Below are positions 9,350 through 46,064 of a stretch of DNA of 54,338 nt, in pieces; the first letter of the stretch is position 1, and the number at the start of each line of letters is the position of its first letter. This DNA is from a virus. The stretch lies in UHGV virus genome UHGV-1367341. The stretch is one strand, 5' to 3'. The notes beneath the pieces are model-generated. The model worked only from the letters and a program-made list of their open reading frames with translations. It did not search any database and was not told where the DNA came from. The translations under genes were made by a program, and so were the position numbers.

Positions 9350-9350
9350 A

Positions 9351-10322: not shown

Positions 10323-10328
10323 GTTGTC

Positions 10329-13474: not shown

Positions 13475-14203
13475 ATGAGCGAGAAAAATTTTTCTGCCCT
13501 TGCAGAATACTTCAAAAGCAAGGGCGTTACACAGAGTGCTATTGCCGAAAATCTCGGAGTTAGCAAGGCCTATGTAAATTCTCTGATGACTGGAAAGAAG
13601 GCATTTGGCAAGGCGCAGGCGGCTAAGTGGGGCGACCTGTACGGCCTCTCACCCTCGTGGTTGCTCACTGGGGAGGGCGAGATGCTGAAGGATGGCGCAC
13701 CAGCTACACAGCCCGCACCAGAAAACAGCGCACGCCCACTCGTAAGTAGCGACCGCGATTGGGTAGAGATACCTCTTGTGCCACACCGCGCGAAAGCAGG
13801 AGCGCTATCGGGCTTCGGGGACCCCTGCTGGGAAGAAGACAAACAGACGATGCCTGTGCTGATCGACAAGAGGCTGAAAGGAGATTACCTGCTCTTTGAA
13901 GTGTCTGGCGACAGTATGGACGACGGCACCAGTACAGCGTTTCTCGATGGTGACGTGCTTCTCTGCCGTGTCCTTCCTAAAAGCGACTGGCAGTATGGTA
14001 TCAAGAAGCGCTCTGCTACGTATTGCGTGATCGCAACGCAGGCGGATGGTATCGTACTGAAGCAAGTGACGCACCACGACAAGTCAGAAGGAACGATCAC
14101 TTGCCACTCTCTAAATCCCGACTACTCGGACTACGACCTGAAGCTAAGTGAAGTGCAAGCCCTCTTCTACGTGGAGCGACTTGCACAGCGGGCTTTGGTG
14201 TAG
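13475..14203 (+). CDS. CI/LexA-like repressor (N-terminal HTH plus C-terminal S24 peptidase domain)
   Basis: HTH is SQSAIAENLGVSKAYVNSLMTG. Ala-Gly cleavage site in HRAKAGALS. Ser nucleophile in FEVSGDSMDDG. Lys in GIVLKQV. Confidence 0.85.
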   Translation: MSEKNFSALAEYFKSKGVTQSAIAENLGVSKAYVNSLMTGKKAFGKAQAAKWGDLYGLSPSWLLTGEGEMLKDGAPATQPAPENSARPLVSSDRDWVEIPLVPHRAKAGALSGFGDPCWEEDKQTMPVLIDKRLKGDYLLFEVSGDSMDDGTSTAFLDGDVLLCRVLPKSDWQYGIKKRSATYCVIATQADGIVLKQVTHHDKSEGTITCHSLNPDYSDYDLKLSEVQALFYVERLAQRALV

Positions 14204-15831: not shown

Positions 15832-17187
15832 TTGCATAATCTGCAACAACTCACAACCACGCACAACATGCTACCTATACGTCGCACCTGCCGCTTCCTT
15901 CTTGATCCACAAAAGGGGTGGACGGCATACAAGATACGCTACCGCATCCGCTACGGAGGGTACATTACCACCGTGGCCGTGGGTCATCGCGCAGAGCCCA
16001 GCAAATGGAGTGCAGAGTCCGAACGCTGTATGAAGAATACCAGCCACGGGGAGAAGCGCACACCAGCCGCTGCAATCAATCGCGCTATCCAATACGTCGA
16101 GGAGTCAATGGAGCGAGCCTTTACCTACTTCGAAGGAGAGGAGCGACTACCAAGCCCCGAGGAACTCAAAGCCAAGTATAACGAGTACCTGCAGTCAGCT
16201 CTCGGCATCGAGGAGGCCAAGGCGCAGGCAATACTCCCCGAGGACAACAGCACTATCGTAGCAGTCTTTGACGCCTTCGTCGCATCGGAGAGCGTGAGAC
16301 GTAGCTGGAGCGAGAGGCACAATGCGAACATACGCACGGCACGTATGCACGTATCTGAGTATGCAGGTAAGGACACCCTGGACCACATCAGTAGCGAGTG
16401 GGTAGCAGGCCTTATCACCTACCTCACCACGAAGCGAGGACTCCTCAACACATCAATAGACAAGACGCTGCGCATACTAAAGAGTCTACTCTACTGGGCA
16501 CAAGGCCAGGGGATATATGAAAAGGATTACCGACGCTTCTTCGACGTACGCCTCAAGGGTATCGACGCAAACAGAGCCGAAGTATATCTCACCTGGGAAG
16601 AGCTGAGCAGTCTTGTCTCCGTGGATCTCAGATTACATTCAGAGCGAGTAGCCCGCGATCTCTTCTGCTTCCTCTGCTTTACAGGGCTTCGATACTCCGA
16701 CCTCAAGAAGCTCACACACGAGAGTATCACGCCCACCAGCATACGTTACTTTGCACAGAAGACCGACCAGCTCATCGAGGTAAACCTCAATGACCACGCC
16801 CGCGCTATCCTCGCAAAGTACGAAGGAGGGGATACCCCACTACCGCCAATGGCGGAGCAGCGACTCAACAGAACGCTCAAGAGCGTCTGCGAGCAGGCAG
16901 GTATCAACGCGCCCGTCACACGACTACGATACTCAGGACGCCACCGCATCGAGGAGACGCTGAAAAAGTATGAGGTCATAACATCACACGTCGGCCGCCA
17001 TACCTTCGTGGTGCAGGCCCTCACACTCGGCATCCCCTCTGAGGTTATCAGGAAGTACACGGGCCACAAGACCGAAGCAACTATGCGCCCGTACATCGCA
17101 ATAGCCGATACCCTCAAGGCTCAAGAAATGGAAAAGTTCAATCGTCCCCTGCTCGAGAAAAAGAGGACGAATAGAGGACGATTTTAG
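15832..17187 (+). CDS. tyrosine-type site-specific integrase
   Basis: Catalytic motifs in order: GLRYSDL (Arg), HVGRHTF (His-x-x-Arg), YTGHKTEATMRPYIAI (His ... Tyr). Bacteroidetes-style N-terminal arm-binding region. True start may be ATG 15868. Confidence 0.85.
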   Translation: MHNLQQLTTTHNMLPIRRTCRFLLDPQKGWTAYKIRYRIRYGGYITTVAVGHRAEPSKWSAESERCMKNTSHGEKRTPAAAINRAIQYVEESMERAFTYFEGEERLPSPEELKAKYNEYLQSALGIEEAKAQAILPEDNSTIVAVFDAFVASESVRRSWSERHNANIRTARMHVSEYAGKDTLDHISSEWVAGLITYLTTKRGLLNTSIDKTLRILKSLLYWAQGQGIYEKDYRRFFDVRLKGIDANRAEVYLTWEELSSLVSVDLRLHSERVARDLFCFLCFTGLRYSDLKKLTHESITPTSIRYFAQKTDQLIEVNLNDHARAILAKYEGGDTPLPPMAEQRLNRTLKSVCEQAGINAPVTRLRYSGRHRIEETLKKYEVITSHVGRHTFVVQALTLGIPSEVIRKYTGHKTEATMRPYIAIADTLKAQEMEKFNRPLLEKKRTNRGRF

Positions 17188-17644: not shown

Positions 17645-17929
17645 TTATGCCATCTCCTCAGCGAGCTTCGTGAGGTCGTCCTCGACGGATGTGCTGTTCA
17701 CATTCGCGGTGAGGTCTACCTGGGTGCTCTGCATCTTCGGCAGGACGAAGCCCATGAGCTTAACCATGACGTCGAGGCGGTCCTTCGGTGGCAGTGCATC
17801 GAGGTCCTCCTTCATCAATCCGCTCTCTTGATACTTGTCAATCACATTAACTATAAGCTCTCGGCTTAGCTTCGTCGTCTTGTTCACTGAGCCAGGCTTT
17901 CGCCCGCCCGTCTTTCTTCCCTTTGCCAT
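17645..17929 (-). CDS. small basic DNA-binding-like protein (MAKGRKTGGRKPGSVNKTT...). Possibly TerS-like or Xis-like
   Basis: Lys/Arg-rich N-terminus followed by a helical segment is typical of small terminase and excisionase-like N-termini. Lone minus-strand gene next to attP. Confidence 0.4.
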   Translation of the reverse strand: MAKGRKTGGRKPGSVNKTTKLSRELIVNVIDKYQESGLMKEDLDALPPKDRLDVMVKLMGFVLPKMQSTQVDLTANVNSTSVEDDLTKLAEEMA

Positions 17930-18011
17930 GTTGCTTTACTCTATATGTCGTGTGCGCGCTAAGCTATCACATTATCTTGCACCACATATAACATATAGAG
18001 CAGAAACAGAT

Positions 18012-18530
18012 ATGCCATTACCAATCGCAAGCCTTGTCGGTGCAGGCATCGGAGCTATCGGGAGTATCTTCGGGGGCATCGCAGCAAGTAAAGCAGCCAA
18101 GCGCGCACGCCAGGGAGTCATGAGCAGCATGCGTGACAATCAGACCTGGTATGATCGAAGATACAATGAGGACGCCCTCCAGCGAGCCGACGCCCTCCGA
18201 ACTATGGAGCGCACCCGTGAGGCTATTGCCAAGCGTAACCAGCGTGCACAGGCAGTGCAGGCCGTCATGGGTGGCACTGAGGAGTCGGTGCAGGCGGAAC
18301 GCGAGGCGGGCAATGAGGCCCTCTCCAATGTAGCCAGCGCAATCGCAGCCGACGGAGCGAAGCGAAAGGACCTCATCGAGAGCCAGTACATCCAGCGTCG
18401 TGACGGCTTCCAGCAGCAGCTCAACCAAATCGAGAACAACCGAGCCCAGGGTATCACCCAGGCTATCGGAGGCGTAGCACAGGCAGGCGCAGGTATCGCC
18501 AGTGCCTTCGACCCACAAAGCAGTAAGTAA
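18012..18530 (+). CDS. glycine-zipper membrane-associated protein, first gene of the late operon
   Basis: MPLPIASLVGAGIGAIGSIFGGIAASKAAK (GxxxG repeats), then a helical Gln/Ala-rich region. Start taken at ATG 18012; the longer ORF from 17835 overlaps the opposite-strand gene. Confidence 0.45.
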   Translation: MPLPIASLVGAGIGAIGSIFGGIAASKAAKRARQGVMSSMRDNQTWYDRRYNEDALQRADALRTMERTREAIAKRNQRAQAVQAVMGGTEESVQAEREAGNEALSNVASAIAADGAKRKDLIESQYIQRRDGFQQQLNQIENNRAQGITQAIGGVAQAGAGIASAFDPQSSK

Positions 18531-31700: not shown

Positions 31701-33524
31701 ATCATTGTCAAGCGTGGAGGCCGTGACGTTGTGATCATCGTCAATGGCGACCCACGTGTGGCAATGGCGGTCAATGGGCTGACTAATCCTGATTCAGACG
31801 CTAATGGTCACGTAGGTGCTTTCTTCAAGTGGACAGCAGCCGTGAATAGAAAGCTCGCAGGCTTCTATACGTCGCTCAGCCCGAACTTCGTGGTGAAGAA
31901 CTTCATCCGAGATATTATATACGCTAACACTATTGCGTGGGTCAAGGAGTCACCCACCTACGCAATGACCTACCACGCCAACGTAGCCAAGCTCGCAGGG
32001 CAGATGCACAGGCTTGTCCACCTCTATGAGCACGACAAGCTGGATATGTCCAACGAGACGCACCGCGCGTTTAAGCTCTTCATGGAGAATGGAGGTGAGA
32101 CGGGCTACTCGCAGCTCCGTAGCATGGACCTCCATAAGAAGGAGATCGAGCGTATGATGAAGGAGTCAGGGGGGCGTATTAGCCTCAAGCAGGGCTTCCG
32201 ATTGCTCGGAGACACTATGGAGTTTGCCAACCGAGGCATCGAAGACCTATCTCGCTTCGCTGCGTTCCTGACGAGTAGACAGATGGGCCGCACTATCGAC
32301 CGCTCTATCTACGACGCAAAGGAGATGACCGTGAACTTCAACAAGAAGGGAGCGGGCTCTACCTTCTCTAAAGCGCATACGCAGACGAAGGCTGGTAAGG
32401 CTTCAGCGTACCTTTCGGGATTTGGCCGTAGCTTCTACCTCTTCTGGAACGTATCTATCCAGGGGTCTGTGAACATCGCCCGTGCTGTGAAGAGAAACCC
32501 TAAGAAGGGTGCGGCATATCTCGCCACCTTCCTCGCTCTCGGTATTCTTCAGACGATGCTACCAGCACTCACTGGTGGTGACGATGATGACAGATACTGG
32601 AACTTACCCGACTATGTAAGGCGTAATAATATCTGTTTCTTTGTAGGAGACGTGCTTGTGAAGATCCCTCTACCGCAGGAAGCCCGCGCTATCTTCGGCA
32701 TAGGTGAGCTGGGGATGAGTTACATGTCAGGGAAGGAAGATAAAGATGCTTGGATGGTAGCCTACACCATGGCTGGGCAGCTGTCTCAGATAATGCCACT
32801 TGACCTAATGGACGACTCGGGTCCGATCCACGCACTTATGCCAAGCCTTGCTAAACCCGCCTTCGAGGCATATACCAACCACAGCTGGATGGGGCGCCCT
32901 ATTTGGAAGGATACCGACTACAATAAGGCTATGCCCGCCTGGACCAAGGCTTATAAGTCTACGGGCGGTGTTTACGTATGGCTGGCTAAGGAGCTGAACG
33001 CACTCACGGGTGGTGACGACTACAAACAGGGATGGGTAAACATCAACCCTGCGAGGATTGAGTACCTATTCAAGGGTTACCTCGGTGGGCTCTACACAGC
33101 GGCCGATCAGATAATCAAGTCCAGCGAGACCGCCTTCGGTGATCGTGAGTTCTCGATGCGTGACGTGCCTATCCTCTCGGGCTTCCTCGACGGGGCTGAC
33201 GAACGCAACGATATGCGCAATGTCAATAACACGTACTACCACTTCAAGGAAGAAGCTAAGGAGGTCCTGCGCCTGGGTAAGTCCTACGAGAGTGATCTCG
33301 AGCAAGGAAAGAGTGACTCCACGGACTACGCTAAGAAGCTCGACGAGCTGGTGAACACCAAATCGTATGAGCGTGCGCTGCTCTTCGAGGATCTCAGTAA
33401 GGAGATCGAGGAGATGCAGAAGGCCCTGAAGGAGGCTACCGATCCCAAGGAGGCAGAGGAGCTACAGGCAGAGATTGACAAACAGAAGAAGGCACTGGTG
33501 ATCCAGCTGCGCCAAATGAAATAA
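19770..33524 (+). CDS. giant 4,584-aa polyvalent-type cargo protein (ADP-ribosyltransferase-like and metallopeptidase modules, ParB-like region, acidic linkers)
   Basis: Single uninterrupted 13.7-kb ORF. Contains two YHGT(S/D) motifs, two HExxH motifs, a ParB-like GEVIQGNSRADALRA motif and long Glu/Ala/Pro low-complexity linkers. Every antisense ORF in the span is low-complexity. Confidence 0.85.
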   Translation: MPNDKTQKNLSSLHNTLETMGYEVPNIDQFTKYMRKEKNLRTVYDAIASDGGYELPDFDTFKANMGWIKPTPAGVPTPLRPKDQLAPTGKPDAPATPFGFDLSANPKKPSHAPKARLGFPRLDKKMRPVQEVNDPSVPLLKTTRDVAQDENGNVVNVVQPELVPDFDPNNGGVTAPKALLDVTTGKTIRPTELSKEEVDGYNAGNIDAVKDPKLRQALKEANVIYTPDVDMEKVHRDQVRDLEQEIDADLKTAYDSFTDKAAAKAKDTRNLMRFGLATAGASMGGGATTMGMHANPLAVESDPEIYMLKLAKHNIQDAKNYIAEADHNAQEGTFSKWLESSFAGGAARGFAQKLFDTRTWDMGIGDAGEAASIKAAVNKADLGEKLTPAEDKLLQSMVTKMAVEAYFNSQVGHGYTAGSVSAYSIPFMLEMAVNPVSTSGNAIGAKLMRYAVRKFGLNVAGKALRKKAVKAAVKYGIGGLTSAAVSSAALTATSGTAHVAADATSRNTGELKFDYKADPETGELRAQYSGHEEGDDALTATGKAFFMRFMENFSEYSGEALAPIAAGVAKGVGAGAKAAGKAIASHMGKAGAKILDAGRWGTKAARELIDNISASEFGRTITALEKKAHYNGKVLEFAEEKISDLASVLIGDKDLSTDKGKGFFNLDDNIDTFLGVSLTGGVISAAQTAGYFAGGGARGMARYQIGQSEGAVWSTLTTDEQRKAWDDVRRQILLQDGKEQVDAVKSALTNPNFNAEQRRAILDYTKSVQTYKGMSEYRRKQSEDTNTDPLQNELADSYDKGAEMTQAEEMSHARSWYEFAQQKAAERLGVDAEALDEMGAPDQLTLDQVAQLREEHSEQAVQSYVDYLNARATYEGMIGSVSQGIQAEAAQAEQAVRSQQHKDGTLRRATLRGTEGQHVEVHIKDGDLVMDEEGRIDTDKSSKDFIVRDNETGVVRFASIDDIISAEQPTSADDAVSEAVNAVYERREKEAADAINGTITPQVGAVYNLLDADGNPQQIAIQQVGQDGTLDVDYSGVPHKMTTDELQAMADNTRARQIENEHAAQVQQAKAEEREEREQAGLPRYALNDELTIRTPEGEEVTAYVTNEEDADGNIEVYFNEPFDGKKVHLFTKDYLDGVVVGTRLSPESNGNTQAVEAPATPAAPALAQVQPAEEGATTEEEGPAPAPTHEEEVDDAPADPNDESLSPEEAYEAVLRATNGDVVLALEVIESTIADKEKALAKAKKAKPRSADTIEGKIQAREEVAAGIEAAETSLAHWQAVAEIAAEQVQEEVAEVAEPVAEQTEQESEEPTAEQEPAEEEAAEEQEPEAEQEEEAIPASEDTAPEWGKDNPADARARGYIKVEGLRVDRQGQLSDALIGKESDVKFATNDTQQAHYAIIEAESLQPSHIRGYQNQLHFIPEAQPKDRSDVVSEQAAVRIAANINPEEITTSATAYTGAPTINARGEVIQGNSRADALRAVWESFRDTSGAKYKQYLIENAEALGIDPEAIEGMKSPVLVHLADVSDERAIELGQYRQADIESGGVERINPQTLYAKIGEKRDTFIRFLLGTSDDDLSLAESITRNAAETLSWLNRQGFISDTQFRSAFGAKGEITAEAKEDLRNALYRSFFEGAHNSLEAEFYNLPKRTQQALLRVSYRDQQSPADAHFLDELQASVSAYNALMGYTPFAEAKTFEDAERAIETWMRFSGDLITGEVNSEQYSNFAVQLALRYKFLTQKELISKLNAVYDAVQAVSEDTLFGEGEVNPKTLAEAVSEVFSINIDNNTEEDGSTGSSSPGSDLEGSNGGEQEGQGTPGGNEQDQSRAGTPERRGRAASDPQEGEGVTTEAEEVAPEAGDTQASDATGEGYRLSAIAAKRGGNFFENSEGSIDLVKISDNVFEAIGIKPLPMRMTEAMAQHIIKQHAKELGISTQEEAVAFVVGIMQHFDHVREGNKPNTYIFSIEKGRSRTGKRAVTLVLPSKSGEYLGVSSSGYEKVSRLKERALLWEEGANNMAPTTETASANVPTPSATQGGMTGGSASNQSNALSQGKDSKKDTAEGEANDGNQDDLSIEEKEALLSKAKQELEEKEAERTAVAEQAIALMKDYYDSGAIPGMDSGEFHGQATLILIGFKDRSNLELMKAPGLSELLPSLYKLADEAREKKMLVRKYEKELSQATEEEGETSTYNDAIRDELVNTMRDAGIEVVTDEAEGQAVLDAARAGEAQMQRAYHGTDADFEAFDHSHMGEGAGGQAYGWGSYFTEEEGVARSYAGGGFVYEAELPDDTGSNYLHFESKPSNKDIARVKRELVEYILRNDEEGMYDYPQGKDDLTQEVDDAGEPTTWRDLYGTVSSHLGSDKEASAFFHSIGYVGIQYNSSETDGGKKNLVIFDESDIAIQSKVRLFKTSSGEAYGFVKDGKIYLDLKHATAETAIHEYTHLWASALRRVNPRAWKSIRKQLKGFELWANIESRYPELKGDEDALADEVLAQYSGKRGAQRIEEEMQKEDNATDLVGKARVLAAFNSLKEALKTFWTEVADFFGMDYYKSVEDAADKAMSDLLRGVNPNAVEAKKKEATKKKPTKKSTAKKEIATSSVIAPDSERYNGYIVALPKSGKAGAEVGNIEEFVAADGMREGLTVIYQAPEGFAVASNGTMAIADKTQFDVYKKGKAYKLDGTTIDAGAWKPLKDKWQSFVSTETRGDNSDPFTESPVKIPRLSKYLDQVEQDLYNRWKADKSGGRTRDSFKAYRSRALVSIPNGRGEYVSYPYTDLRTIALAAKRLGVTSFFVEGDLHFGSSEQPGRRLVGNGRLGSVVHAGYFETRDHNASKRKELSYLYDESVGVKDIDEGVRMQKELEEKDAKYAEMDAQVSAANNVSNAEEDTEEANDEEVRYRSDELDEVSNRFNAELAQLTEENSDSTIFSLGMPSSELIAGGVAPKLMRLYGNKVIKKMKKHGFALSDLLDLPKAVAQPIAVFSTHRDGSHAILTELKTDEGNILVTLEVGKGGADVDFNLLTSTYGKSHGKVVQWLNSGKATYINKEKALEYLASAPAPIAGAKQAQELSLATKVVETFDNPPLASEDLGIGNDNQAAEDNDDEVRFRSSRLSPELQAIKDQAKADGSFMKAPNGRPTNLTEKQWLQVRTPEFKEWFGDWENDPTNASKVVDENGEPMVVYHGTSVSSRRFFKFKDGAPNWFTPSEYYAKAFTFDEDIPVMYPSFIKIKKLMHLGYIDGDVISGKIRSLSLDTGISESSIRYIVSKERADKVYQITNSPLFKREAMALGYDGMMAFEAGVDSFAIFSPSQVKSATENVGSFDGMNDDIRYSSYDAAEREDLDMQDLDEVANSAAEALGESVRVIHDTSEIEGRSESETNRMRGAKGWYDPKTGQVVVVLPNAESADDVEATILHEVVGHKGLQELVGKDQFGKFLDEVFEGANEAVRNGIVERSKRYGWNTRLATEEYIAELAEQGFKDLEARDLWNVVRNAFYNLLSRVKLALGWDVSDRELRYMLWRTYQMKKGEGLMGQAKDIAMQEKLGVGNYEEARFRQGESAAPVKVAATYDALIKKSSYQTQEALQDSMLSLKKVMEMIMQAKGDAKYIEEIEGYQNAYMGENRVSSVNQAEAAAYSRMALEPLVEEVSRLAKKAHHSYVTDYMMAKHGLERNRVMAFQKAVEADVDAHNKAVKESGEGEELTASSLWDAYLNDTDRLRNEADYREGRITADVWHKTDDEIRARYAPSYAEYRERDYAGLTGLLDRPDVDIQTLEEEAIEEVMKFENENDVTDLWELTNKATDAPLAKQYEGGLMSRETLEHVRNMYGYYIPLRGFDETTSDEAYSYLGDRDRAFSPTLKKAKGRSSKAEDPLAHIASMMESAILQSNRNKLVRQKFLNFVENNPSDLFSVQKLWVQWNNTTKTWDAVLPEFDPNDTSEEVIRKTQEFEEAMRKSQRENPELFKLASEQPSIPYRVVGQDKKMQHQIIVKRGGRDVVIIVNGDPRVAMAVNGLTNPDSDANGHVGAFFKWTAAVNRKLAGFYTSLSPNFVVKNFIRDIIYANTIAWVKESPTYAMTYHANVAKLAGQMHRLVHLYEHDKLDMSNETHRAFKLFMENGGETGYSQLRSMDLHKKEIERMMKESGGRISLKQGFRLLGDTMEFANRGIEDLSRFAAFLTSRQMGRTIDRSIYDAKEMTVNFNKKGAGSTFSKAHTQTKAGKASAYLSGFGRSFYLFWNVSIQGSVNIARAVKRNPKKGAAYLATFLALGILQTMLPALTGGDDDDRYWNLPDYVRRNNICFFVGDVLVKIPLPQEARAIFGIGELGMSYMSGKEDKDAWMVAYTMAGQLSQIMPLDLMDDSGPIHALMPSLAKPAFEAYTNHSWMGRPIWKDTDYNKAMPAWTKAYKSTGGVYVWLAKELNALTGGDDYKQGWVNINPARIEYLFKGYLGGLYTAADQIIKSSETAFGDREFSMRDVPILSGFLDGADERNDMRNVNNTYYHFKEEAKEVLRLGKSYESDLEQGKSDSTDYAKKLDELVNTKSYERALLFEDLSKEIEEMQKALKEATDPKEAEELQAEIDKQKKALVIQLRQMK
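23950..24450 (+). other. ParB/Srx-like nuclease-type domain inside the giant protein
   Basis: GEVIQGNSRADALRAVWE (nt 24168..24221) resembles ParB box II (G-x-x-R-x-x-A). Preceded by a box-I-like IPEAQPKDRS. Confidence 0.35.
26457..26760 (+). other. ART-like domain 1 (AYHGTDADFEAF ... GWGSYFTEEEG ... VYEAEL)
   Basis: H-G-T NAD-binding-type motif at nt 26469..26477, downstream aromatic S/T-Y-F motif and acidic residue. Pattern of H-Y-E-class ADP-ribosyltransferases (ART-PolyVal-like). Confidence 0.4.
27060..27095 (+). other. zincin HExxH motif 1 (TAIHEYTHLW)
   Basis: HEYTH at nt 27075..27089, about 200 aa downstream of ART-like domain 1. Confidence 0.45.
29283..29580 (+). other. ART-like domain 2 (VVYHGTSVSSRRFF ... 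NWFTPSEYYAKAF)
   Basis: Second H-G-T motif at nt 29295..29303 with similar downstream pattern. Internal duplication of domain 1. Confidence 0.4.
29976..30020 (+). other. zincin HExxGH motif 2 (ILHEVVGHKG)
   Basis: HEVVGH at nt 29991..30008, about 230 aa downstream of ART-like domain 2. Confidence 0.45.
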
Positions 33525-33535
33525 GAGAGAAGCGA

Positions 33536-35506
33536 ATGAATACCTACACTAAGAAGCTACGTCGGCTGAGCCAGGTTGGCGGGCAAAAGAAGATTGACTC
33601 CGTTGGATCTACCAAGCACCACGGGGAGTACAACCGAGCTATGGGCGTACTCCTCGAGGCGCGTCGTAGCTGGGACGCCATGTCACGTTTCCGAAAGGAT
33701 CGCGAGCGGTGCAAGCGGTACACCTACGGGGATCAGTGGAAGGATGTCGTCAATGTGGACGGCAAGACGATGACCGAGGAGAAGTATATCATGGAGCAAG
33801 GTAGCGTCCCATTGAAGAACAACCTCATCCGTCGCCTTGTGCGTAACGTCCTCGGTGCATACCTCAAGCAGACGAAAGAGCCTGTATGCGTGGCGCGAGA
33901 CAGAGACGAGCAGCGACTCGGAGAGACGATGAGCACGATCCTCCAGTACAATATGCAGCTCAATAGTATGACCGAGATAGGAGCGCGCTCTATGGAGGAG
34001 TTCGTCATCAGCGGGCTAACGGTCCAGCATAAGAGCTACGGGGTGCGTGAGGGTCGCCTGGACTGCTGGACACGTAATGTCAATCCGAGCATGTTCTTCT
34101 TGGACTCCAATTCACAGGACGTGCGCGGATGGGACGTAAGCATCCTCGGTGAGATCCATGATATTGACTTACAAACGCTCTTCCGAGAGTTTGCCAGCAG
34201 CCGCGAGGAGTGCGAACGCCTGCGTGAGATCTACCGCTATGCACGCGACGGGGATTACGTGAGTCAATACTTTTCGGATTTCCCTGACTTCGGGTATAGT
34301 GATGCGCGTACTTACGACTTCTTCACAGGTCGCGATCCCCGTCGCTGTCGTGTCATCGAGGTATGGCGCAAGGAGACGAAGGAGCGATACTTGTGCCACG
34401 ACCCTAACAACGGGGAGGTATACAAGATCGAGACGGAGGACTACGGGAAGATGGTAGAGGCTGTGAATAGAGACCGCATGGTAATGGCCGCTGAGCAGGG
34501 GATCCCCGAGGAGGATGTGCCACTAATCGAGGCGACGTGGTTTGTAGACGATTATTGGTACTTCTACTACCTCAGTCCCTTCGGTCATATCCTAAAGGAG
34601 GGAGAGACCCCATACCACCACAAGAGCCACCCCTATGTCTTCAAGGCCTACCCCTTCATTGATGGGGAGATCCACTCCTTCGTCTCCGACGTCATCGACC
34701 AGCAGCGATATACGAACCGCCTCATAACGCTATACGACTGGGTAATGCGCTCAAGCGCGAAGGGGGTGCTTCTTGTCCCCGAGGATAGCATACCTACCAA
34801 TACGACTCCCGAGGAATTTGCGGAAGAGTGGAGTCGCTTCAACGGGGTAATCGCCTTTACCCCCAACAAGCAGGGGGTACTACCTCAGCAGATCTCGAGC
34901 AACGCCACGAATATCGGCATCGGGGAGCTACTGAATATCCAGCTCAAGCTCTTCGAAGATGTGTCAGGGGTACATGGTGCATTGCAGGGTAAGCCAGGCT
35001 TTGCGGGGATGAGCTCCAGCCTATACGCTCAGCAGACGCAGAACGCGACGAACTCGCTGGTGGATCTCATGGATAGCTTTAGCGCGTTCACGATCCAGGG
35101 GGCGTATAAGGATGTGAAGAACATTCAGCAGTTCTACGATGAGAAGCGCGTGGTGAATATCGCGGGCAATGACTCGAGTCTACTCCCCGACGATCCCCGC
35201 AAGATCCGTGATATTGAGTTCGACCTCTCTATTGCTGAGAGCTCCTCGAGCCCTGCATATCGACAGCTCGCTAATGAGTTCCTCCTCGAGGTATGGAAGG
35301 CTGGTCAGATCACGCTCAACCAGCTATTGGAGGTGGGCGACTTCCCATTTGCGGACAAGCTCTTACAGAGTCTCGACTCGCAAGCTGAGCAGATGAAGCA
35401 GGGCATAGCCCCCGAAGGGATAAGCCCCGAAATGCAGCAGCAGGCTATGGCTATGGCTGATCCAGCTGCCGTAGAAATGGCTCACCGAGCCCTCACGGCA
35501 AACTAA
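33536..35506 (+). CDS. putative portal protein (656 aa)
   Basis: Size, position between the cargo megaprotein and the terminase, and alpha/beta-rich composition. No motif-level confirmation possible by eye. Confidence 0.4.
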   Translation: MNTYTKKLRRLSQVGGQKKIDSVGSTKHHGEYNRAMGVLLEARRSWDAMSRFRKDRERCKRYTYGDQWKDVVNVDGKTMTEEKYIMEQGSVPLKNNLIRRLVRNVLGAYLKQTKEPVCVARDRDEQRLGETMSTILQYNMQLNSMTEIGARSMEEFVISGLTVQHKSYGVREGRLDCWTRNVNPSMFFLDSNSQDVRGWDVSILGEIHDIDLQTLFREFASSREECERLREIYRYARDGDYVSQYFSDFPDFGYSDARTYDFFTGRDPRRCRVIEVWRKETKERYLCHDPNNGEVYKIETEDYGKMVEAVNRDRMVMAAEQGIPEEDVPLIEATWFVDDYWYFYYLSPFGHILKEGETPYHHKSHPYVFKAYPFIDGEIHSFVSDVIDQQRYTNRLITLYDWVMRSSAKGVLLVPEDSIPTNTTPEEFAEEWSRFNGVIAFTPNKQGVLPQQISSNATNIGIGELLNIQLKLFEDVSGVHGALQGKPGFAGMSSSLYAQQTQNATNSLVDLMDSFSAFTIQGAYKDVKNIQQFYDEKRVVNIAGNDSSLLPDDPRKIRDIEFDLSIAESSSSPAYRQLANEFLLEVWKAGQITLNQLLEVGDFPFADKLLQSLDSQAEQMKQGIAPEGISPEMQQQAMAMADPAAVEMAHRALTAN

Positions 35507-35564: not shown

Positions 35565-37709
35565 CTATATAGTGGCTTCGCTCACGGGCTTTGATCTCCT
35601 GCTGGCGGCCCGTCGCTGCTCTGCCGTCTTTACCTGTATGATCTTCGGCAGTGGCATTTCCTTCGTATTGGAGCTGATGTACAAGCCTATTGCGCGCGTC
35701 ATCAGAAGGTCGTCATGCTTACCGAGGATAGCTCCGTATGCTCCATTCTGTTTGCGCTCATAGGTGATGTACTCATTCAGACAACGCTCGTCACGCTCGA
35801 CGTATAGCCCTTCTCGGATGAAGGTGATAAGGACGTCGATGATGATAGGCTTCGTGTGCACGTTCGTATGGAAGCCATACTTGCGAGGCACGGAGTCGCG
35901 TATCTCATCGGCAGACTGCGGGCGTGCATACAGGTTGTCGTACACGTCTTTGATCTGATTGAGGATGAAGTGCGAATGATCTCCGTCCACTTGTCGGTTG
36001 GGGTCTTTGGTCTCGAGGGTGTTACTCTCAATGACAAGGAGGGCCTCATCGTAGTACTTGGCGATCTGTGCAGACTTCCACGCAAGTTTGTCCATATCGA
36101 TGTGCCCGTACCACTGAGCCACGACCACGGGCTTACCCCCATCCATCATAAAGAGCCTGTCGAACACACAGATGACGGAGTAGTCAGCACCTCGGCTACG
36201 CCCCCCAATATCCACCACGACAAGGTATCTATTCGTGATGCGCTCGCCCGGGTCTATCTCGGGCTTCTCCCAAATAGTGAATAGCCCTTGGTGATCTTCA
36301 ACAAAGCGCACGTTGGTAATAGCATCCTCGCCCGTCGCTCCATTGGCCACGACGTCACCCACGAAGCGTGGAGGCTTACATGTAGGTCTCAACGCTTCCA
36401 CTTGGTACATGTCGAATACGCGTTGTCCTGAGTGGACGAAGGCTTCGATGTCGTCGGAGGGGAACTCAGATGCCATATCCCCGTGGTCGCTCTTGCTCTT
36501 TCGCTCCTGGATATACCAGTGTATCGCCTCGAGGGTAGCACCCTGCTCCCATAGCCACCACAGGTATTTGCCTGGCTCTGCTCGGTCGCTCGCAGCATAG
36601 TCCGCTCTCCTGTTCTTCCATAGCTCTGTGGCGAAGGCTTCGCGGTCGGGTATGTCAAGGCTGTACTGCTCGATCTCAAACCATGCAACGAAGAGGGCTT
36701 TGAATTGCGAGTCGCCACGACGGGCCGCATCATACTCTCGTTGGAAGAAGTTCCCCGTACCATTGGCGGTGGACTCATACACGATCATGGTGTGGGGCTT
36801 GTAGAGTACCCCCGAACAAGCTGATCGAATGATCTGCTCGGGCGTCTTCCCCTCAGTGGTCTTCCATAGCCCCACCTCAGTGCAGTGCACCAGGTTGTAG
36901 TCACCACCACGCGCGCTGTCGGGAGCTTCTGCTGTCCCCAGCTTGATATTACACGAACGCTGAGGGATGCGCCTCACGTTTCTCTCCGACCCTATGCCGA
37001 TTAGCTTTGGCTCATTAGGCTTGAACGATGCCCCTATCGGGTATAGCCGCTCTATGGGGTAGGCATTGATAAGACGCTCGAACATGTTGCTTACCTCGGT
37101 AGAGGCAGCTTTGACGTGACCGACGATAAGGGAGTTTAGCCCCACCTGGTGCACCAGCTGAAGCCACGCCATATATATCTGTGTGGCGGTAGAGCCACCC
37201 CACTGACGCGCCTTCAACAGGATAAGGCGTATAGGAGCACCAGCAAGACGCTGACGCTCGAAAGCCTCGACGAGTTTACGCTGTGGGTGATTGAGCTTGA
37301 AGCGCACGTCAGAGCCACCCCCCTTGCGTTTGATGAACACCTGGACCGCAGCCCAAAAGAAAAAATCATGCTTCTCTCTCAGTCGGAGGAACACCTCTAC
37401 GAGTGCCTTCCTGTTCTCCTCCGTCTCCTCTCCGTACCTCTCCACAAGGAATTTGGATATGCTCCCCGCCTTGGATAGACGCTTGATGAGAGGTATATCC
37501 TTCATCGAGGTAGGCAGGTATTGCACCTTCATAGCACCGAAGTCAGAGAGGCGCAGCTCGAAACGCTCCAGCGGTGACCCTAACCCCGTGATGGGATTAA
37601 ATGGTGCATGGAGAGCTTCGAGCCGTCGCTCATTCTCTTGTAGTATTCGTGCTACTTCTTCGCGCATTGAGTGAGGTATCCGATACCGAGGCCCATGATG
37701 AAGCCCCAA
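35565..37709 (-). CDS. terL: terminase large subunit
   Basis: ATPase motif LKARQWGGSTATQ (K-x-R-Q-x-G-x-S/T type). Nuclease-domain motif MIVYESTANGTGNFF. 714 aa. Confidence 0.8.
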   Translation of the reverse strand: MGLHHGPRYRIPHSMREEVARILQENERRLEALHAPFNPITGLGSPLERFELRLSDFGAMKVQYLPTSMKDIPLIKRLSKAGSISKFLVERYGEETEENRKALVEVFLRLREKHDFFFWAAVQVFIKRKGGGSDVRFKLNHPQRKLVEAFERQRLAGAPIRLILLKARQWGGSTATQIYMAWLQLVHQVGLNSLIVGHVKAASTEVSNMFERLINAYPIERLYPIGASFKPNEPKLIGIGSERNVRRIPQRSCNIKLGTAEAPDSARGGDYNLVHCTEVGLWKTTEGKTPEQIIRSACSGVLYKPHTMIVYESTANGTGNFFQREYDAARRGDSQFKALFVAWFEIEQYSLDIPDREAFATELWKNRRADYAASDRAEPGKYLWWLWEQGATLEAIHWYIQERKSKSDHGDMASEFPSDDIEAFVHSGQRVFDMYQVEALRPTCKPPRFVGDVVANGATGEDAITNVRFVEDHQGLFTIWEKPEIDPGERITNRYLVVVDIGGRSRGADYSVICVFDRLFMMDGGKPVVVAQWYGHIDMDKLAWKSAQIAKYYDEALLVIESNTLETKDPNRQVDGDHSHFILNQIKDVYDNLYARPQSADEIRDSVPRKYGFHTNVHTKPIIIDVLITFIREGLYVERDERCLNEYITYERKQNGAYGAILGKHDDLLMTRAIGLYISSNTKEMPLPKIIQVKTAEQRRAASRRSKPVSEATI

Positions 37710-38155
37710 AGGTGTACGAATTGATTGATGAGAGGGAATATGCAGCTAACGGCAAAGCCAACGGCAAGCCAGGTAAGCCACTCGCGTTTGCGTACCACCT
37801 GGGGAGTTACCATGCCTATCAGGGCGTAGCATGCACCTGAAAGCCCAGTCGTTGGTAAGGTGAGAATGTGCGCATCGCAGATCCCGTACAATGTGGCCAC
37901 GGGGAATAGCGACGCAATGATATAGGACGTCAGCAGCTGTCGTGCGGTTACGCCCATATAGAACACCAGCGAGAGTAAGCACCAGCAGTTTACAAGCCAG
38001 TGGAAGATGGACGCATGAAAAAGCGAGTAGGTCCAACGCCCCCACCATGGGCCCGTGTTGTATATCCCTACGCTGCCGTGGGGAATGGGGAGCAAATAGA
38101 GGACGAATGTAAGTAGAGCGATGGCGAGGCTTAGCGTTTTGGTCTTGTCTTGCAT
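37652..38155 (-). CDS. rhomboid-family intramembrane serine protease
   Basis: TM2 HWLVN (H-x-x-x-N). Catalytic Ser in GLSGA. Catalytic His in VHLWGFIMGLGIG. Six predicted TM helices in 167 aa. Confidence 0.7.
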   Translation of the reverse strand: MQDKTKTLSLAIALLTFVLYLLPIPHGSVGIYNTGPWWGRWTYSLFHASIFHWLVNCWCLLSLVFYMGVTARQLLTSYIIASLFPVATLYGICDAHILTLPTTGLSGACYALIGMVTPQVVRKREWLTWLAVGFAVSCIFPLINQFVHLWGFIMGLGIGYLTQCAKK

Positions 38156-38550
38156 AGCTGCTTGGCTTCGTTAATCTTCTCGTAGGTCTTGCGGTCGGAG
38201 AGATAGAGCTTGGGGGCTGGAGCATTGACTACCCGTATTACGGCATCCTCGAGAGATAGCCCCAAAGGGCTATTGAGAAGTAGCATTACACGCTTGTATA
38301 TCTCCTCGTACATCTCCTGCGTCGAAGGCGTTTTGATAGGGCATTCACCACCTAAGCGTATCATCTTCTGAATGACACGCACCGCCCTATCCTCTGACAC
38401 GAAGAAGCGGGAGTACTCGCTGTTCTTCACATGCTGTACGACGTTCTTCATGTTTATGTAAAAGCACATCGAAGTAGCCTCTCGGTACTTCGTCAGTATC
38501 TCACAAAGCACTCGGTGCTTATACTCGTAGCACGATCTTTTGCCTGGCAT
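38131..38550 (-). CDS. hypothetical protein upstream of rhomboid/terL (possible small terminase subunit)
   Basis: 139 aa, basic. First gene of the leftward packaging unit. Function by position only. Confidence 0.35.
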   Translation of the reverse strand: MPGKRSCYEYKHRVLCEILTKYREATSMCFYINMKNVVQHVKNSEYSRFFVSEDRAVRVIQKMIRLGGECPIKTPSTQEMYEEIYKRVMLLLNSPLGLSLEDAVIRVVNAPAPKLYLSDRKTYEKINEAKQLCKTRPKR

Positions 38551-38681
38551 AGCTCGCTCCTTTATTTTGGTATGCCTTAAAGATACGCATTAGGGGGTTC
38601 AATTCCAATATATAATACGCAATATGTCACAGCATTAGGGCGGGTGCTTTATAGATTTGCTTCATCTATAAAATTAGGCTT

Positions 38682-39491
38682 ATGGAAATAGATGAACAGA
38701 AGGACCTTGCACCCGCAGATCCCCCTGCTGCTGAGGTGAGTAAGCGCGACCGACTCAAGGCGCGCTTGAAGGACAAATATCCCGACGACGATATGGACGA
38801 CGATGAAGTCCTCGCTGGTCGTATCAACGACGACTACGACGACTACGAAGGCCAGTTAGAAGGGTACAAGGGGAGAGAGAAGGAGATCGCAGGCCTCTTT
38901 GGCCGTGACCCCCGAAGTGCGAGCTTCATCTCGCGTTGGGCTGGTGGCGAAGATCCCGCAGTCCTTCTTGTCGAAACGTTCGGAACGGAGATTACCGACG
39001 CTATCGGAGACCCTGAGAAGCAGGAGCAGATCGCGGAGGCTAATCAGAAGTTCCTCGACCGCATCGCTAACTCCGAGAAGCTCGAGAAGGAGTACGAGGA
39101 AAACCTGGGTGAGTCTCTCAACGTGATTGGCAAGCTCCAGGAAGAAGGCGTACCCGACGAGGATATTGACAAGGCTATGGAGCTGCTCCAAAACATTGTC
39201 ACTGACGGGGTGCGCGGGAAGTTCACACGCGAGACCATCGAAATGGCACTCAAGGCTATTGGCTACGACAACGCAGTGGCAGAGGCCGAGGAGACGGGAC
39301 GCGTGGCAGGGCGCAATGAGAAGATTGACGTGAAGCTCCGTAAGCCCGAAGAAGGCGACGGCACGGCCAACCTCTCGGGAGGTGGCTCAACCCCTGAAAG
39401 ACCTACACCCAACCTGGGTGCTCTTGGTGAAGCATCAACCCGCAAGAGCATTTGGGACAAGGGCAAGATGAAGAGAGTTAAGCGAGAGTAA
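38682..39491 (+). CDS. acidic helical protein, scaffold-like
   Basis: 269 aa, very acidic, Asp/Glu-rich. Immediately upstream of the putative capsid gene. Possible TAGATTTG -7 element at 38652..38659. Confidence 0.4.
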   Translation: MEIDEQKDLAPADPPAAEVSKRDRLKARLKDKYPDDDMDDDEVLAGRINDDYDDYEGQLEGYKGREKEIAGLFGRDPRSASFISRWAGGEDPAVLLVETFGTEITDAIGDPEKQEQIAEANQKFLDRIANSEKLEKEYEENLGESLNVIGKLQEEGVPDEDIDKAMELLQNIVTDGVRGKFTRETIEMALKAIGYDNAVAEAEETGRVAGRNEKIDVKLRKPEEGDGTANLSGGGSTPERPTPNLGALGEASTRKSIWDKGKMKRVKRE

Positions 39492-39516: not shown

Positions 39517-40941
39517 ATGAATAAGAAGCAAGTAGTAACTAACATCTCAAACCTGGGTCTGCTCCTCTTGGCAGGCATCTTCGGGGGTGGTGCTATGGCT
39601 GTCGTCGGTCCTCTTCCTGATGCAGGTAAGACTGATAGCGGTGCAGCCGTAGGCCAGGGTGGCAAGGAAATAGGCAACGAAGGTATCGCCAACCGCACCA
39701 CGGGTGAGGCTGAGGGCGATCCCGACTACTATTCCAAGGCCATTGACGATCGCATCATTAAGATCCGTCCAATGTCCACCCCTATCGACCAGATCAGCCG
39801 ACACTCCGAAGCTCGCAAGATCGATAGCATGGTAGTGAAGTACCCCTCAGTAGGTACGCGCCCTATCTCCACGACGACATCGAAGGCGATGACGGCACAG
39901 CTCGCCACCGACGCCAGCATCAAGCTGGAGGTAGCTGACGCGAGCATGTTCACGCTCGACGATACGATCCGTGTCGTAGGCATCAAGGGGCAGTTCGACG
40001 AAAATGGTAACGCCTACCCCGTTGGAGCTGCACCCGACCTCGTGCTGCACGTCTGTGGACGTGACAACAACACGAACATGCCTGTTGTCTATGCCGTCAA
40101 TGGCGCGAAGAACGCGAAGGGGCAGCCCATACTCGTCCCACAGATCCCTCAGAATACGCGCCTGGTGCGAATGGGTAAGGCTGGTAGCGAGCTTGACGTA
40201 CAGACGGGACGCTTCAACAACATCCCCACCTTCGAGGAGCAGTACTGCCAAAACTTCATGATCCAAATCGAGCAGTCCACGATCGACAAGATGTCTGCAA
40301 AGAACGTCAAGTGGGACTTCTCGGACCTGGAAGAAGATGGCATCTACGATATGCGCCTTGCACAGGAGAACACCTATCTCTTCGGTGCGAAGAGTAGGAT
40401 CGTCCACCCCTCTAAGGATGGCTCTGCTACGTGGTTCACAGGCGGTATTTGGCATCAGGCGGGTAAGGATATCGAGGTCGGTACGTACGTCGCTTCGGCA
40501 AGACGCACTGACATCACCGATGAGCAGCTTGTAGATATCTCCAAGGACCTCTTCGTAGGTACAGGTGTCGGCAACAAGCGCAAGATCCTTTTCTGCGGTA
40601 GCGAAATGCTCGCAGCGTTCTCGAAGATCAAGAGCGACAAGTTCCGCCTGAAGGAGTCGGTAGAGTCGTGGGATCTCCAGTTCAAGTCCTGGATCACCGA
40701 CTTCGGTGAAATCATGGTCATGCATCATGAGCTCTTCGACCTGAATGGTATGAGCGACTGCGGTCTCGCACTCGATCCCGAGTTCCTCGTCAAGAACACC
40801 TTCCTCTCCTGGCAGCGTAATATCCTCGACATGAAGGCAGCAGGTATCCGCAATACCGACGCCGTTGTCCTCCAGGAGATCGCCTGCCTGTATCTCCGCT
40901 ATCCAAAGGCTCACGCTCGCCTCAAGCTGAAGAAGGCGTAA
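39517..40941 (+). CDS. putative major capsid protein (474 aa)
   Basis: Size and position after the scaffold-like gene. Followed by a strong hairpin terminator. No motif-level confirmation. Confidence 0.5.
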   Translation: MNKKQVVTNISNLGLLLLAGIFGGGAMAVVGPLPDAGKTDSGAAVGQGGKEIGNEGIANRTTGEAEGDPDYYSKAIDDRIIKIRPMSTPIDQISRHSEARKIDSMVVKYPSVGTRPISTTTSKAMTAQLATDASIKLEVADASMFTLDDTIRVVGIKGQFDENGNAYPVGAAPDLVLHVCGRDNNTNMPVVYAVNGAKNAKGQPILVPQIPQNTRLVRMGKAGSELDVQTGRFNNIPTFEEQYCQNFMIQIEQSTIDKMSAKNVKWDFSDLEEDGIYDMRLAQENTYLFGAKSRIVHPSKDGSATWFTGGIWHQAGKDIEVGTYVASARRTDITDEQLVDISKDLFVGTGVGNKRKILFCGSEMLAAFSKIKSDKFRLKESVESWDLQFKSWITDFGEIMVMHHELFDLNGMSDCGLALDPEFLVKNTFLSWQRNILDMKAAGIRNTDAVVLQEIACLYLRYPKAHARLKLKKA

Positions 40942-45602: not shown

Positions 45603-46064
45603 ATGAGCAAGTACTTTTCATTGTCCGAGATGACGCATAGCGACACCGCTATCCGTCTCGGCATACCCAATGATCCAAACAAAGATCAGATTATGTACCT
45701 CGAGCGGCTTATGGAGTATCTCGATGGGGTACGTGAGGAGTTTGCCAACCCTATTATCGTGCGCTCAGGTCTCCGAGTGCCTAAGCTCAACAAAGCCGTT
45801 GGCGGTGTTGCGGATAGTCAGCACGTGCTGGGGCAAGCTGCCGACATCGTACCACGCGACCACAAGCTGTTGAAGAAGCTACTCCATACCATTTGGGATC
45901 GCGGGGGCTTCGATCAGCTGATATGGGAGCACCCCGAGGGGCGCAGCGAGTGGATACACGTATCCATTGCAGGGAAAAACAAGACGCCACGAGGGCAGGT
46001 GCTGGAGTACGACGGGAAGAGATACACGACGATGAAGAAACCTATTAACCCCAATACACTATGA
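45603..46064 (+). CDS. peptidase M15 (L-Ala-D-Glu / D-Ala-D-Ala peptidase family) endolysin
   Basis: [30 protein letters not shown] (S-G-x-R ... GG ... S-x-H ... G-x-A-x-D) and EWIHVS zinc-ligand motifs. Confidence 0.8.

Follow-up and report, generated by a model that had tools for sequence, protein, structure and literature searches.

What is an intramembrane protease doing in the DNA packaging operon of a bacteriophage? The question is raised by UHGV virus genome UHGV-1367341, a stretch of 54,338 nucleotides (nt) that was analysed at its full length and is called the window below. One gene of this window, adjoining that of the large terminase subunit (TerL), encodes a small membrane protein of the rhomboid family:

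37652..38155, minus strand: rhomboid gene (mini-rhomboid intramembrane serine protease), ATG start, 167 amino acids (aa), identified from its open reading frame (ORF), Pfam, a family profile and a structural model

Our analyses indicate that this protein is a rhomboid reduced to the minimal core, with six transmembrane (TM) segments, shortened loops and no extra domains, and that its gene belongs to the ancestral core of a very large lineage of Bacteroidales phages, temperate and podovirus-like, in which it has been passed on vertically. As to its role, the reading that we favor, with a probability of about 0.4, is that it serves morphogenesis by cutting the membrane-inserted precursor of a virion protein encoded by the phage itself, with the N-terminal pro-segment of the major capsid protein (MCP) as the likeliest candidate. 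That the gene is expressed late, that its product is proteolytically active and what it cuts are inferences from the data presented here.

The 167-aa ORF carries all three rhomboid hallmarks at the sites where the first-pass annotation, made from the sequence without database searches, had placed them. The first, H47-ASIF-H52-WLV-N56, matches the HxxxxHxxxN pattern of GlpG. The second, the serine motif G104-L-S106-G107-A-C-Y-A-L-I-G, bears a close likeness to GLSGVVYALMG in GlpG, and the third, V-H148-L-W-G151-F-I-M-G155, follows the AHxxGxxxG pattern of TM6. The codons of the two catalytic residues can be read directly off the minus strand at 37838..37840 (tca, S106) and 37712..37714 (cac, H148).

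Membership in the rhomboid family was established using profile searches. The protein matched Pfam PF01694 (Rhomboid; MEROPS S54) at 37.1 bits (E=4.4e-9), above the gathering score of 22.6; the match spans residues 36-161 and profile positions 3-139 of 143 and was the only one in Pfam to pass the threshold. A word-indexed homologue search gave three close relatives only; the family emerged from an exhaustive HMMER search covering 1.84 billion representative sequences, in which 386 clusters were found at E<1e-3 and 170 at E<1e-10, nearly all of them 145 to 190 aa long. An alignment of 100 relatives, 25 to 46% identical to the window protein, contains exactly six invariant columns (H47, H52, N56, G104, S106 and H148), while G155 is kept in at least 90% of the members, and 84 of the 100 individually pass the Pfam Rhomboid model at E<1e-3. 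Since the catalytic residues are invariant across members this divergent, we conclude that selection has acted on catalysis, and judging by this pattern of residues the protein is probably catalytically competent and engaged in real proteolysis.

No rhomboid was matched when the single window sequence was searched against PDB sequences with phmmer, and the family profile was required. This profile recovered Haemophilus influenzae GlpG (HiGlpG; 2nr9) at E=5e-8 over essentially its full length and Escherichia coli GlpG (EcGlpG) at approximately 1e-5, with Ser, His and the HxxxN motif in register. The profile GlSgv is aligned with GLSGV of both GlpG proteins, so that S106 is the counterpart of GlpG Ser201; H148 falls on the His of AAHISGLIVGL in 2nr9, the counterpart of GlpG His254; and H47-xxxx-H52-xxx-N56 falls on HLSNLHILFN of 2nr9, the GlpG motif of H150 and N154. 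In the L1 region the window protein reads W38-G-R40, of which the Arg is the family-consensus majority (RLxY) and the Trp is not conserved, and L1 is approximately 10 residues shorter than in HiGlpG.

The compact six-TM topology predicted by the first-pass annotation was borne out by an AlphaFold2 (AF2) model built on the 100-member alignment (mean predicted local distance difference test score (pLDDT) 96.6, predicted TM-score (pTM) 0.91), with helices at residues 2-21, 50-67, 71-93, 106-119, 123-137 and 145-166. In a Foldseek comparison with the PDB the top 37 matches were all GlpG or iRhom, with a probability of 1.00 and TM-scores of 0.5 to 0.71. Under the positive-inside rule all 100 members are oriented N-in/C-in, with a mean of 8.0 Lys and Arg residues on the cytoplasmic side versus 1.6 outside; this leaves the active site, like that of GlpG, open to the periplasm. 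The annotation had named two findings that would speak against a rhomboid, a catalytic Ser or His out of register in a profile alignment and an unrelated topology. Both were checked; the residues align and the topology is that of a rhomboid.

The closest structural comparison is with GlpG (PDB 2nr9, 2ic8), which shares the six-TM core at a TM-score of 0.6 to 0.7, the Ser on TM4, the His on TM6, HxxxxHxxxN on TM2 and the N-in/C-in orientation. The window protein differs in being only about 20% identical, phage-encoded and part of a packaging operon. It is also smaller, at 167 aa compared with 192 aa for HiGlpG and 276 aa for EcGlpG, with shortened loops and no cytoplasmic N-terminal domain, so that it begins directly at TM1. 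At approximately 155 to 180 aa the family is among the smallest of rhomboids, a useful property for studies of structure and mechanism. Two more specific assignments were considered and rejected. Orthology with GlpG was ruled out by scores of 14.9 bits against a cut-off of 335 and 13.8 against 250 (NCBIfam NF008155 and TIGR04239), and rhombosortase (TIGR03902), which was the best NCBIfam match, by 31.6 bits against an equivalog cut-off of 84.

The position of the gene was examined together with its neighbors, which are arranged in two divergent operons:

35565..37667, minus strand: TerL, 700 aa from the ATG at 37667; phrog_2 terminase large subunit, E=8.7e-18; overlaps the stop of the rhomboid gene by 16 nt
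38131..38550, minus strand: orf139, conserved partner upstream of the rhomboid gene; phrog_27246
38551..38681: divergent intergenic region of 131 bp between the orf139-rhomboid-TerL operon and the scaffold-like/MCP operon, presumed to carry late promoters
38682..39491, plus strand: orf269, acidic, probably helical, scaffold-like, just upstream of MCP; phrog_22323
39517..40941, plus strand: MCP, SU10/HK97-type, 474 aa; PF17236, E=2.7e-31, from residue 65

As the first-pass annotation had noted, the rhomboid gene overlaps terL. The overlap is 16 nt with the TerL ATG at 37667, which is the start picked by gene callers in six near-identical contigs, and 58 nt with the upstream TTG at 37709 that gives the longest ORF; at its other end the rhomboid gene overlaps orf139 by 25 nt. 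TerL itself matched annotated TerL proteins of Vibrio, Stx and Shigella phages by tblastn. Position and composition suggest that orf269 is the scaffold, and it is kept in the cultured Bacteroides phages BS-TP4 (50% identity) and BF1-TP2 (31%).

To assess how general this arrangement is, we sampled 80 rhomboid-anchored IMG/VR loci of approximately 200 encoding a relative, 80 MCP-anchored loci of at least 495, six assembly contigs and two contigs of metagenome-assembled genomes (MAGs; Prevotella and Sodaliphilus), the last two from a narrow-pattern scan of genome contigs that was no full count of cellular homologues. In all of the first 88 loci, orf139, rhomboid and TerL follow one another in this order on one strand, with orf269 and then MCP diverging from them. 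The order of the first three genes was also present in every MCP-anchored locus that reached far enough, giving about 165 covering loci overall, three cultured Bacteroides phages included, and it extends to clades whose rhomboid scores only 51 to 67 bits against the family profile. In all loci the rhomboid operon has the MCP operon as its divergent neighbor. Spacing between the rhomboid gene and TerL ranges from -34 to +8 nt in most loci; in four listed loci there is an apparent overlap of -103 to -234 nt, where ORF calls from the first ATG may over-extend TerL. The small overlap or gap suggests that the two genes are translationally coupled, which we consider probable.

Protein searches identified the family in three cultured temperate Bacteroides phages from one source study, BS-TP4, BKO1-TP3 and BF1-TP2 (PMC12694917). 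In BS-TP4 and BKO1-TP3 the rhomboid is 36 to 38% identical to that of the window, and TerL, portal and MCP are approximately 60% identical. BF1-TP2 is more distant, with TerL and MCP approximately 48% identical and a 155-aa rhomboid that fell below the tblastn threshold and was located via TerL synteny. Its portal gene (9193-11061 of locus L091) lies downstream of TerL on the same strand, whereas in the window the two genes are convergent. Both the orf-rhomboid-TerL unit and the divergent scaffold-MCP unit are intact despite the moved portal, which shows that rearrangement does not separate the pair. When the whole genomes of the window, BS-TP4 and BF1-TP2 were compared, approximately 12 genes were common to all three; they belong without exception to the virion module, and the rhomboid gene is among them.

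The rhomboid evolves faster than its neighbors, at 33 to 41% identity versus approximately 60% for TerL, portal and MCP. Across 48 non-redundant loci its pairwise distances nevertheless track those of TerL (r=0.90) and of the MCP core (r=0.91), and the gene has therefore been inherited vertically with the module, with no repeated acquisition. The first-pass annotation had singled out the location of the gene in the packaging block as unexpected; the survey of related loci shows that, far from being a peculiarity of this phage, the position is fixed and ancestral across a very large lineage. The MCP family alone comprises more than 2,300 clusters at 90% identity, and BS-TP4 is reported from 31% of healthy-donor viromes (PMC12694917). 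The lineage is large and common in gut metagenomes.

The annotation's remark that rhomboids are rare in phages was supported. By tblastn, 2 of 50,697 INPHARED records carried a match, and a third was found by TerL synteny. No PHROG v4 family was matched by the window rhomboid (E<0.1) or by that of BF1-TP2 at 6550-7017 of L091 (E<0.001), while nearly all neighboring core genes match PHROGs strongly (for example, MCP with 710 bits); it seems that this database release either lacks the rhomboid of the lineage or has left it unclustered. BFVD holds eight rhomboid folds, of which two are 155- to 160-aa 'GlpG-like' proteins of uncultured gut podoviruses, probably of the same family as the window rhomboid, and several others come from giant viruses. 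The two gut podovirus proteins, those of Podoviridae sp. ctzXp5 and ctsfx1 (UniProt/BFVD), were the top fold matches, with TM-scores of 0.69 to 0.79.

The presence of the gene is not new, being recorded in GenBank and UniProt labels. BS-TP4 gp8 (PQ571277) and BF1-TP2 gp59 (PQ571263), of the same family and in the same position, are already labelled rhomboid in GenBank, while BKO1-TP3 gp50 (PQ571269) is mislabelled as a 'glycoside hydrolase'. In the same three records TerL is mislabelled as a 'tail spike protein', and MCP is called 'DUF2951 domain-containing protein' in BS-TP4 and BKO1-TP3 and 'DUF5309 family protein' in BF1-TP2. The paper describing these phages makes no mention of the rhomboid gene (PMC12694917), and a literature search on phage rhomboids combined with capsid, terminase or prophage returned passing annotations only, such as a 'rhomboid membrane protein' of Stenotrophomonas phage DLP5. 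Three points appear to be unreported in the literature searched: a distinct phage clade of minimal rhomboids, the rhomboid as a fixed core gene of the packaging and morphogenesis module in a large, prevalent lineage of temperate Bacteroidales phages, and its universal co-occurrence with a signal-anchor-like MCP pro-segment having a conserved junction.

What, then, could the protease be cutting? Because the gene belongs to the core and is coupled to TerL, it is more likely to serve virion production than an accessory, host-specific function. No protease domain other than the rhomboid was found in the structural module using Pfam, PHROG and further scans, and the rhomboid itself had no match to the prohead protease families in Pfam (Rhomboid only) or PHROG. 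Among the proteins of the module, the lead candidate substrate is a segment of the capsid protein:

39517-39630, plus strand: N-terminal approximately 38 aa of MCP, signal-anchor-like pro-segment

Its sequence is MNKKQVVTNISNLGLLLLAGIFGGGAMAVVGPLPDAGK, laid out as a basic n-region, a hydrophobic helix with a C-terminal part rich in small residues, and a conserved LPDAGK. After the junction follow a Gly/Asp-rich linker of approximately 35 residues and then the capsid fold. The segment is universal, being present in 162 of 162 loci with a complete N-terminus and in 120 of 120 database homologues, and BF1-TP2 has it too. It is puzzling by itself, since a capsid protein is not expected to be exported.

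Conservation within this segment is concentrated at the junction. The motif V-x-M-A-x-A-[ST]-x-LPDAG is strongly conserved across the lineage, whereas the hydrophobic core upstream of it is variable. In 50 MCP sequences filtered to less than 75% identity in the N-terminal region, conservation was 0.92 for G24, 0.88 for G28, 0.84 for V29, 0.84 for M31, 0.96 for A32, 0.84 for A34 and 0.90 to 0.98 for L-P-D-A-G. Such a pattern is typical of a site that is recognized or processed, and not of a plain anchor. V29, A32 and A34 fit the rhomboid recognition rule of a large hydrophobic residue at P4, a small one at P1 and a hydrophobic one at P2' (Strisovsky et al. 2009, PMC2941825); the same study offers an explanation of how a looped type II protein might reach the active site. 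That the MCP pro-segment specifically is the substrate is a tentative proposal, to which we would give well under an even chance.

If the proposal is right, the events could run as follows. The rhomboid would be expressed late from one operon with orf139 and TerL, probably by translational coupling, and would sit in the host inner membrane N-in/C-in, with its Ser106-His148 site facing the periplasmic side. The signal-anchor of MCP would insert as a hairpin (N-in), the linker of approximately 35 residues would recross the membrane, and the capsid domain to which it leads would by then have folded on the cytoplasmic side. Cleavage would take place at ...G-V-x-M-A/x-A-[ST]-x-LPDAG... (the slash marks the cut), with V, A and A as P4, P1 and P2', and a cut at this periplasm-facing site would let the linker slip back and free an assembly-competent MCP. 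Capsid assembly would so be tied to the membrane and to co-expression with the terminase. In this scheme MCP would be made as a membrane-tethered precursor matured by the rhomboid, which would then be the first intramembrane capsid or prohead protease; we think the full scheme rather doubtful, and put it forward as a possibility. Should MCP be the substrate, capsid maturation in this lineage would be of a new, intramembrane and membrane-coupled kind, and the signal-peptide-like N-termini of MCPs in other Bacteroidota phages would find an explanation as well.

The proposed job, a protease of the morphogenesis module that removes an N-terminal pro-segment from MCP, is that of the prohead proteases such as HK97 gp4 and T4 gp21. 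These differ in having an unrelated fold and catalytic environment and in being soluble, co-assembled in the procapsid and usually encoded between portal and MCP, while the window rhomboid is membrane-embedded and its gene lies beside that of TerL. Another comparison is with the Porphyromonas 'Nixviridae', Bacteroidota phages whose MCPs are likewise predicted to start with signal peptides, assumed there to be cut by the phage prohead protease (Matrishin et al. 2023, PMC10367356). According to that study the phages encode prohead proteases, and no rhomboid is mentioned, whereas the window lineage has the rhomboid only, and the 'Nixviridae' MCPs were not detected as homologues of the window MCP. 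The rhombosortase/GlyGly-CTERM system offers a third parallel, with an enzyme of similar small size in which a rhomboid devoted to a particular partner protein cuts off its TM anchor, which has a basic tail and a junction of small residues; the MCP segment, being N-terminal, is the mirror image of GlyGly-CTERM.

Several observations weigh against the MCP segment as substrate. The charges flanking it (+2.6/-1.9) predict an N-in/C-out orientation in 180 of 181 sequences, which is the reverse of every characterized bacterial rhomboid substrate (TatA-type) and nominally puts the capsid protein in the periplasm; the second conserved TM virion protein, a Gly-zipper protein considered below, has the classical substrate orientation. 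A32-x-A34 is also a canonical signal-peptidase-I site, so that a rhomboid is not strictly needed, and the window's own clade is off-motif at the proposed P4, with Gly (GGGAMAVV). More than 160 in-family loci all have both the rhomboid and the MCP segment (100%), and as nothing varies, this is not an independent test. No outgroup with one of the two traits only was found; the next TerL relative in INPHARED, MW202692 (28% identical), has neither an annotated rhomboid nor a detectable MCP homologue. Finally, mirror-tree and partial Mantel analyses of the 48 non-redundant loci gave no specific co-evolution of MCP and rhomboid. Given TerL, the partial r with the rhomboid was highest for orf269 (0.70), followed by the MCP core (0.61), the linker (0.59) and the MCP N-terminus (0.58), and lowest for orf139 (0.47). 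The rhomboid is about equally correlated with every gene of the module, and the analysis does not tell the candidate substrates apart.

The alternative that survives best is that the substrate is a protein of the host inner membrane, a target also raised in the first-pass annotation, and that the rhomboid serves a late remodeling of the envelope, through inactivation of a sensor or defence, a change in a transporter or in Tat or Sec, lysis timing, or superinfection exclusion. Bacterial rhomboids are known to act on MgtE and on orphan respiratory subunits, and to our knowledge the natural substrates and roles of most of them have still to be found. Characterized bacterial rhomboids cut cellular proteins such as TatA (PMC2941825), and the lower identity of the phage rhomboid (33 to 41%, as against approximately 60% for its neighbors) is compatible with the tracking of diverse hosts. 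What makes this alternative unlikely on balance is that the gene is fixed in place, overlaps that of TerL and belongs to the roughly 12 core genes shared by phages of Bacteroides, Prevotella and Sodaliphilus, while host-directed phage genes are usually variable accessory genes. PADLOC defence models also gave no match, and hence no link of the rhomboid to known defence systems.

A second alternative stays within the virion and names a different precursor:

18012..18530, plus strand: Gly-zipper internal-virion/ejection-type protein, 172 aa, with an N-terminal GxxxG-rich TM helix followed by a basic patch

Here an N-out/C-in helix would be clipped near the periplasmic face for release or maturation into the capsid. 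The listed ORF (17835..18530) starts at a TTG approximately 59 codons early, and the true start is most likely the Met at 18012, from which the protein reads MPLPIASLVGAGIGAIGSIFGGIAASKAAKRARQ...; the conserved protein begins MPLPIASLVGAGIGAIGSIFGGIAASK. It is kept in at least 118 viral contigs (with the N-terminus conserved in the 80 fetched), in BF1-TP2 and in BS-TP4, whose annotation misses or contradicts the gene by calling gp62 on the opposite strand of the same region. A TatA-like orientation, a tail of one to five residues, a Gly-rich, helix-destabilized TM segment and the basic patch SKAMKKVKK all speak for it as a substrate, as does a weak match to PF24072 T7_gp14 (E=0.0048).

The closest precedent for such a cut would be the Providencia stuartii rhomboid AarA, an enzyme with seven TM segments, and its substrate TatA. 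TatA, which AarA activates by removing a short N-terminal extension, has in common with the Gly-zipper protein a single N-out/C-in TM segment, a small P1 residue and a site near the periplasmic face, and LPIA/SL in the window protein fits the P4/P1/P2' motif (PMC2941825). The likeness stops at the extension, since most relatives of the Gly-zipper protein have none to cut, their TM segment starting from residue 2 or 3, and here both the enzyme and its candidate substrates are viral. The motif fit is also loose within a Gly/Ala-rich helix, and the gene lies approximately 19.6 kb away from that of the rhomboid. Gly-zipper N-termini occur moreover in ejection proteins of phages that have no rhomboid. 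We therefore hold the Gly-zipper protein to be an improbable substrate, even as the rhomboid remains the fixed core gene of a compact viral module with two conserved, co-encoded candidates.

The segment of MCP might also have nothing to do with the rhomboid, and be an ordinary Sec signal peptide or non-membrane pro-peptide for host signal peptidase I, leaving the rhomboid unrelated or engaged in clean-up, in which it would rid the membrane of spent signal peptides and TM stubs like a signal peptide peptidase, or in the quality control of phage proteins that are mis-inserted. The textbook layout of n-, h- and c-regions and the canonical -3/-1 site at A32-x-A34 are as this would have it, and SignalP-positive MCPs occur in other Bacteroidota phages for which no rhomboid is mentioned (PMC10367356). 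We rate this reading as quite improbable. Export of a capsid protein is biologically senseless, so that the segment needs a special explanation anyway; conservation of LPDAG past the AxA site is unusual for a signal peptide; and a housekeeping role fits poorly with strict core-gene status in a packaging operon. Least probable by far is a non-catalytic, rhomboid-fold pseudoprotease that anchors or chaperones the terminase or procapsid at the membrane, since, for all the tight coupling to TerL and the presence among the fold matches of such known pseudoproteases as iRhom and Derlin, pseudoproteases characteristically lose their catalytic residues and here Ser, His, HxxxN and GxSx are invariant in 100 members only 25 to 46% identical to the window protein.

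Other membrane proteins of the phage were also considered as substrates. None of the window's holin, spanin-like and other small or single-pass TM ORFs was detectably conserved in BS-TP4 or BF1-TP2, where fast-diverging analogues are possible. As the ORFs are not detectably conserved in these cultured rhomboid-bearing relatives, holin- or spanin-like proteins are poor candidates for a lineage-wide conserved substrate. MCP, by its N-terminus, and the Gly-zipper protein, neither of which the first-pass annotation proposed, are the better ones. The favored reading, proteolysis of a membrane-inserted virion-protein precursor, is open to direct experiment, because three cultured phage-host pairs (BS-TP4, BKO1-TP3 and BF1-TP2) are available in which the enzyme-substrate question can be tested.

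The gene upstream of the rhomboid, orf139, had been called a putative small terminase in the first-pass annotation, and here our results did not sustain the label beyond what position suggests. Of 170 loci with a rhomboid match, 166 have orf139 upstream, in the same operon as TerL with the rhomboid gene between them, and the orf139 family has the conserved motifs RFWVSxxRA and PAPKFYLT. It had no Pfam or NCBIfam match, its PHROG has no assigned function, and no PDB sequence was matched even with a 30-sequence profile. Its AF2 model (six helices, pLDDT 86) had no significant fold match in the PDB by Foldseek, the best being E=0.6. From its position orf139 may be a novel small terminase (TerS).

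The remainder of the window resembles a whole temperate phage genome, which also encodes a weak holin match and an M15 endolysin, and an INPHARED nucleotide search gave no match to it. Its other main features are as follows:

13475..14203: CI-like helix-turn-helix (HTH)/S24 repressor
15832..17187: tyrosine integrase
19770-33524, plus strand: polyvalent protein, 4,584 aa, with LPD14, ddrB-ParB, MuF_C, ART-PolyVal and LPD38 domains, directly upstream of the portal gene
33536..35506, plus strand: portal, P22-type, convergent with TerL; PF16510, E=1.2e-43; phrog_156, E=1.6e-90

The 4,584-aa polyvalent protein is probably an injected anti-defence protein. In relatives its size ranges from approximately 2,900 to more than 5,700 aa, with differing domain sets (helicase, DarB-like). 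Directly downstream of the CI/S24 repressor, a 187-aa ORF (14228-14791, plus strand) begins with a signal-like hydrophobic segment. For Bacteroidales prophages, a 2026 preprint (10.64898/2026.06.25.734096) reports that the products of genes beside the CI-like repressor have a signal peptide or TM segment and are co-expressed during lysogeny.

A 147-aa ORF at 48176-48619 (plus strand) has an N-terminal hydrophobic segment ending in ...LTSC, which is lipobox-like, and a second hydrophobic segment near its C-terminus; its product could be a unimolecular spanin, and no conservation of it was detectable in BS-TP4 or BF1-TP2. Just after the endolysin gene, 46061-47899 (plus strand) encodes a 612-aa protein with a collagen triple helix and BspA-type leucine-rich repeats. 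The length and gene split of this region vary among contigs whose flanking structural genes are 92 to 100% identical, as expected for a receptor-binding or host-range module.

An assignment of the phage to the Quimbyviridae was rejected, since phages of that family are myovirus-like. Relatives were located on MAG contigs labelled Rikenellaceae, Bacteroidaceae, Prevotella and Sodaliphilus. The G+C content of the window is 54%, which we take to be well above that of typical Bacteroides genomes.

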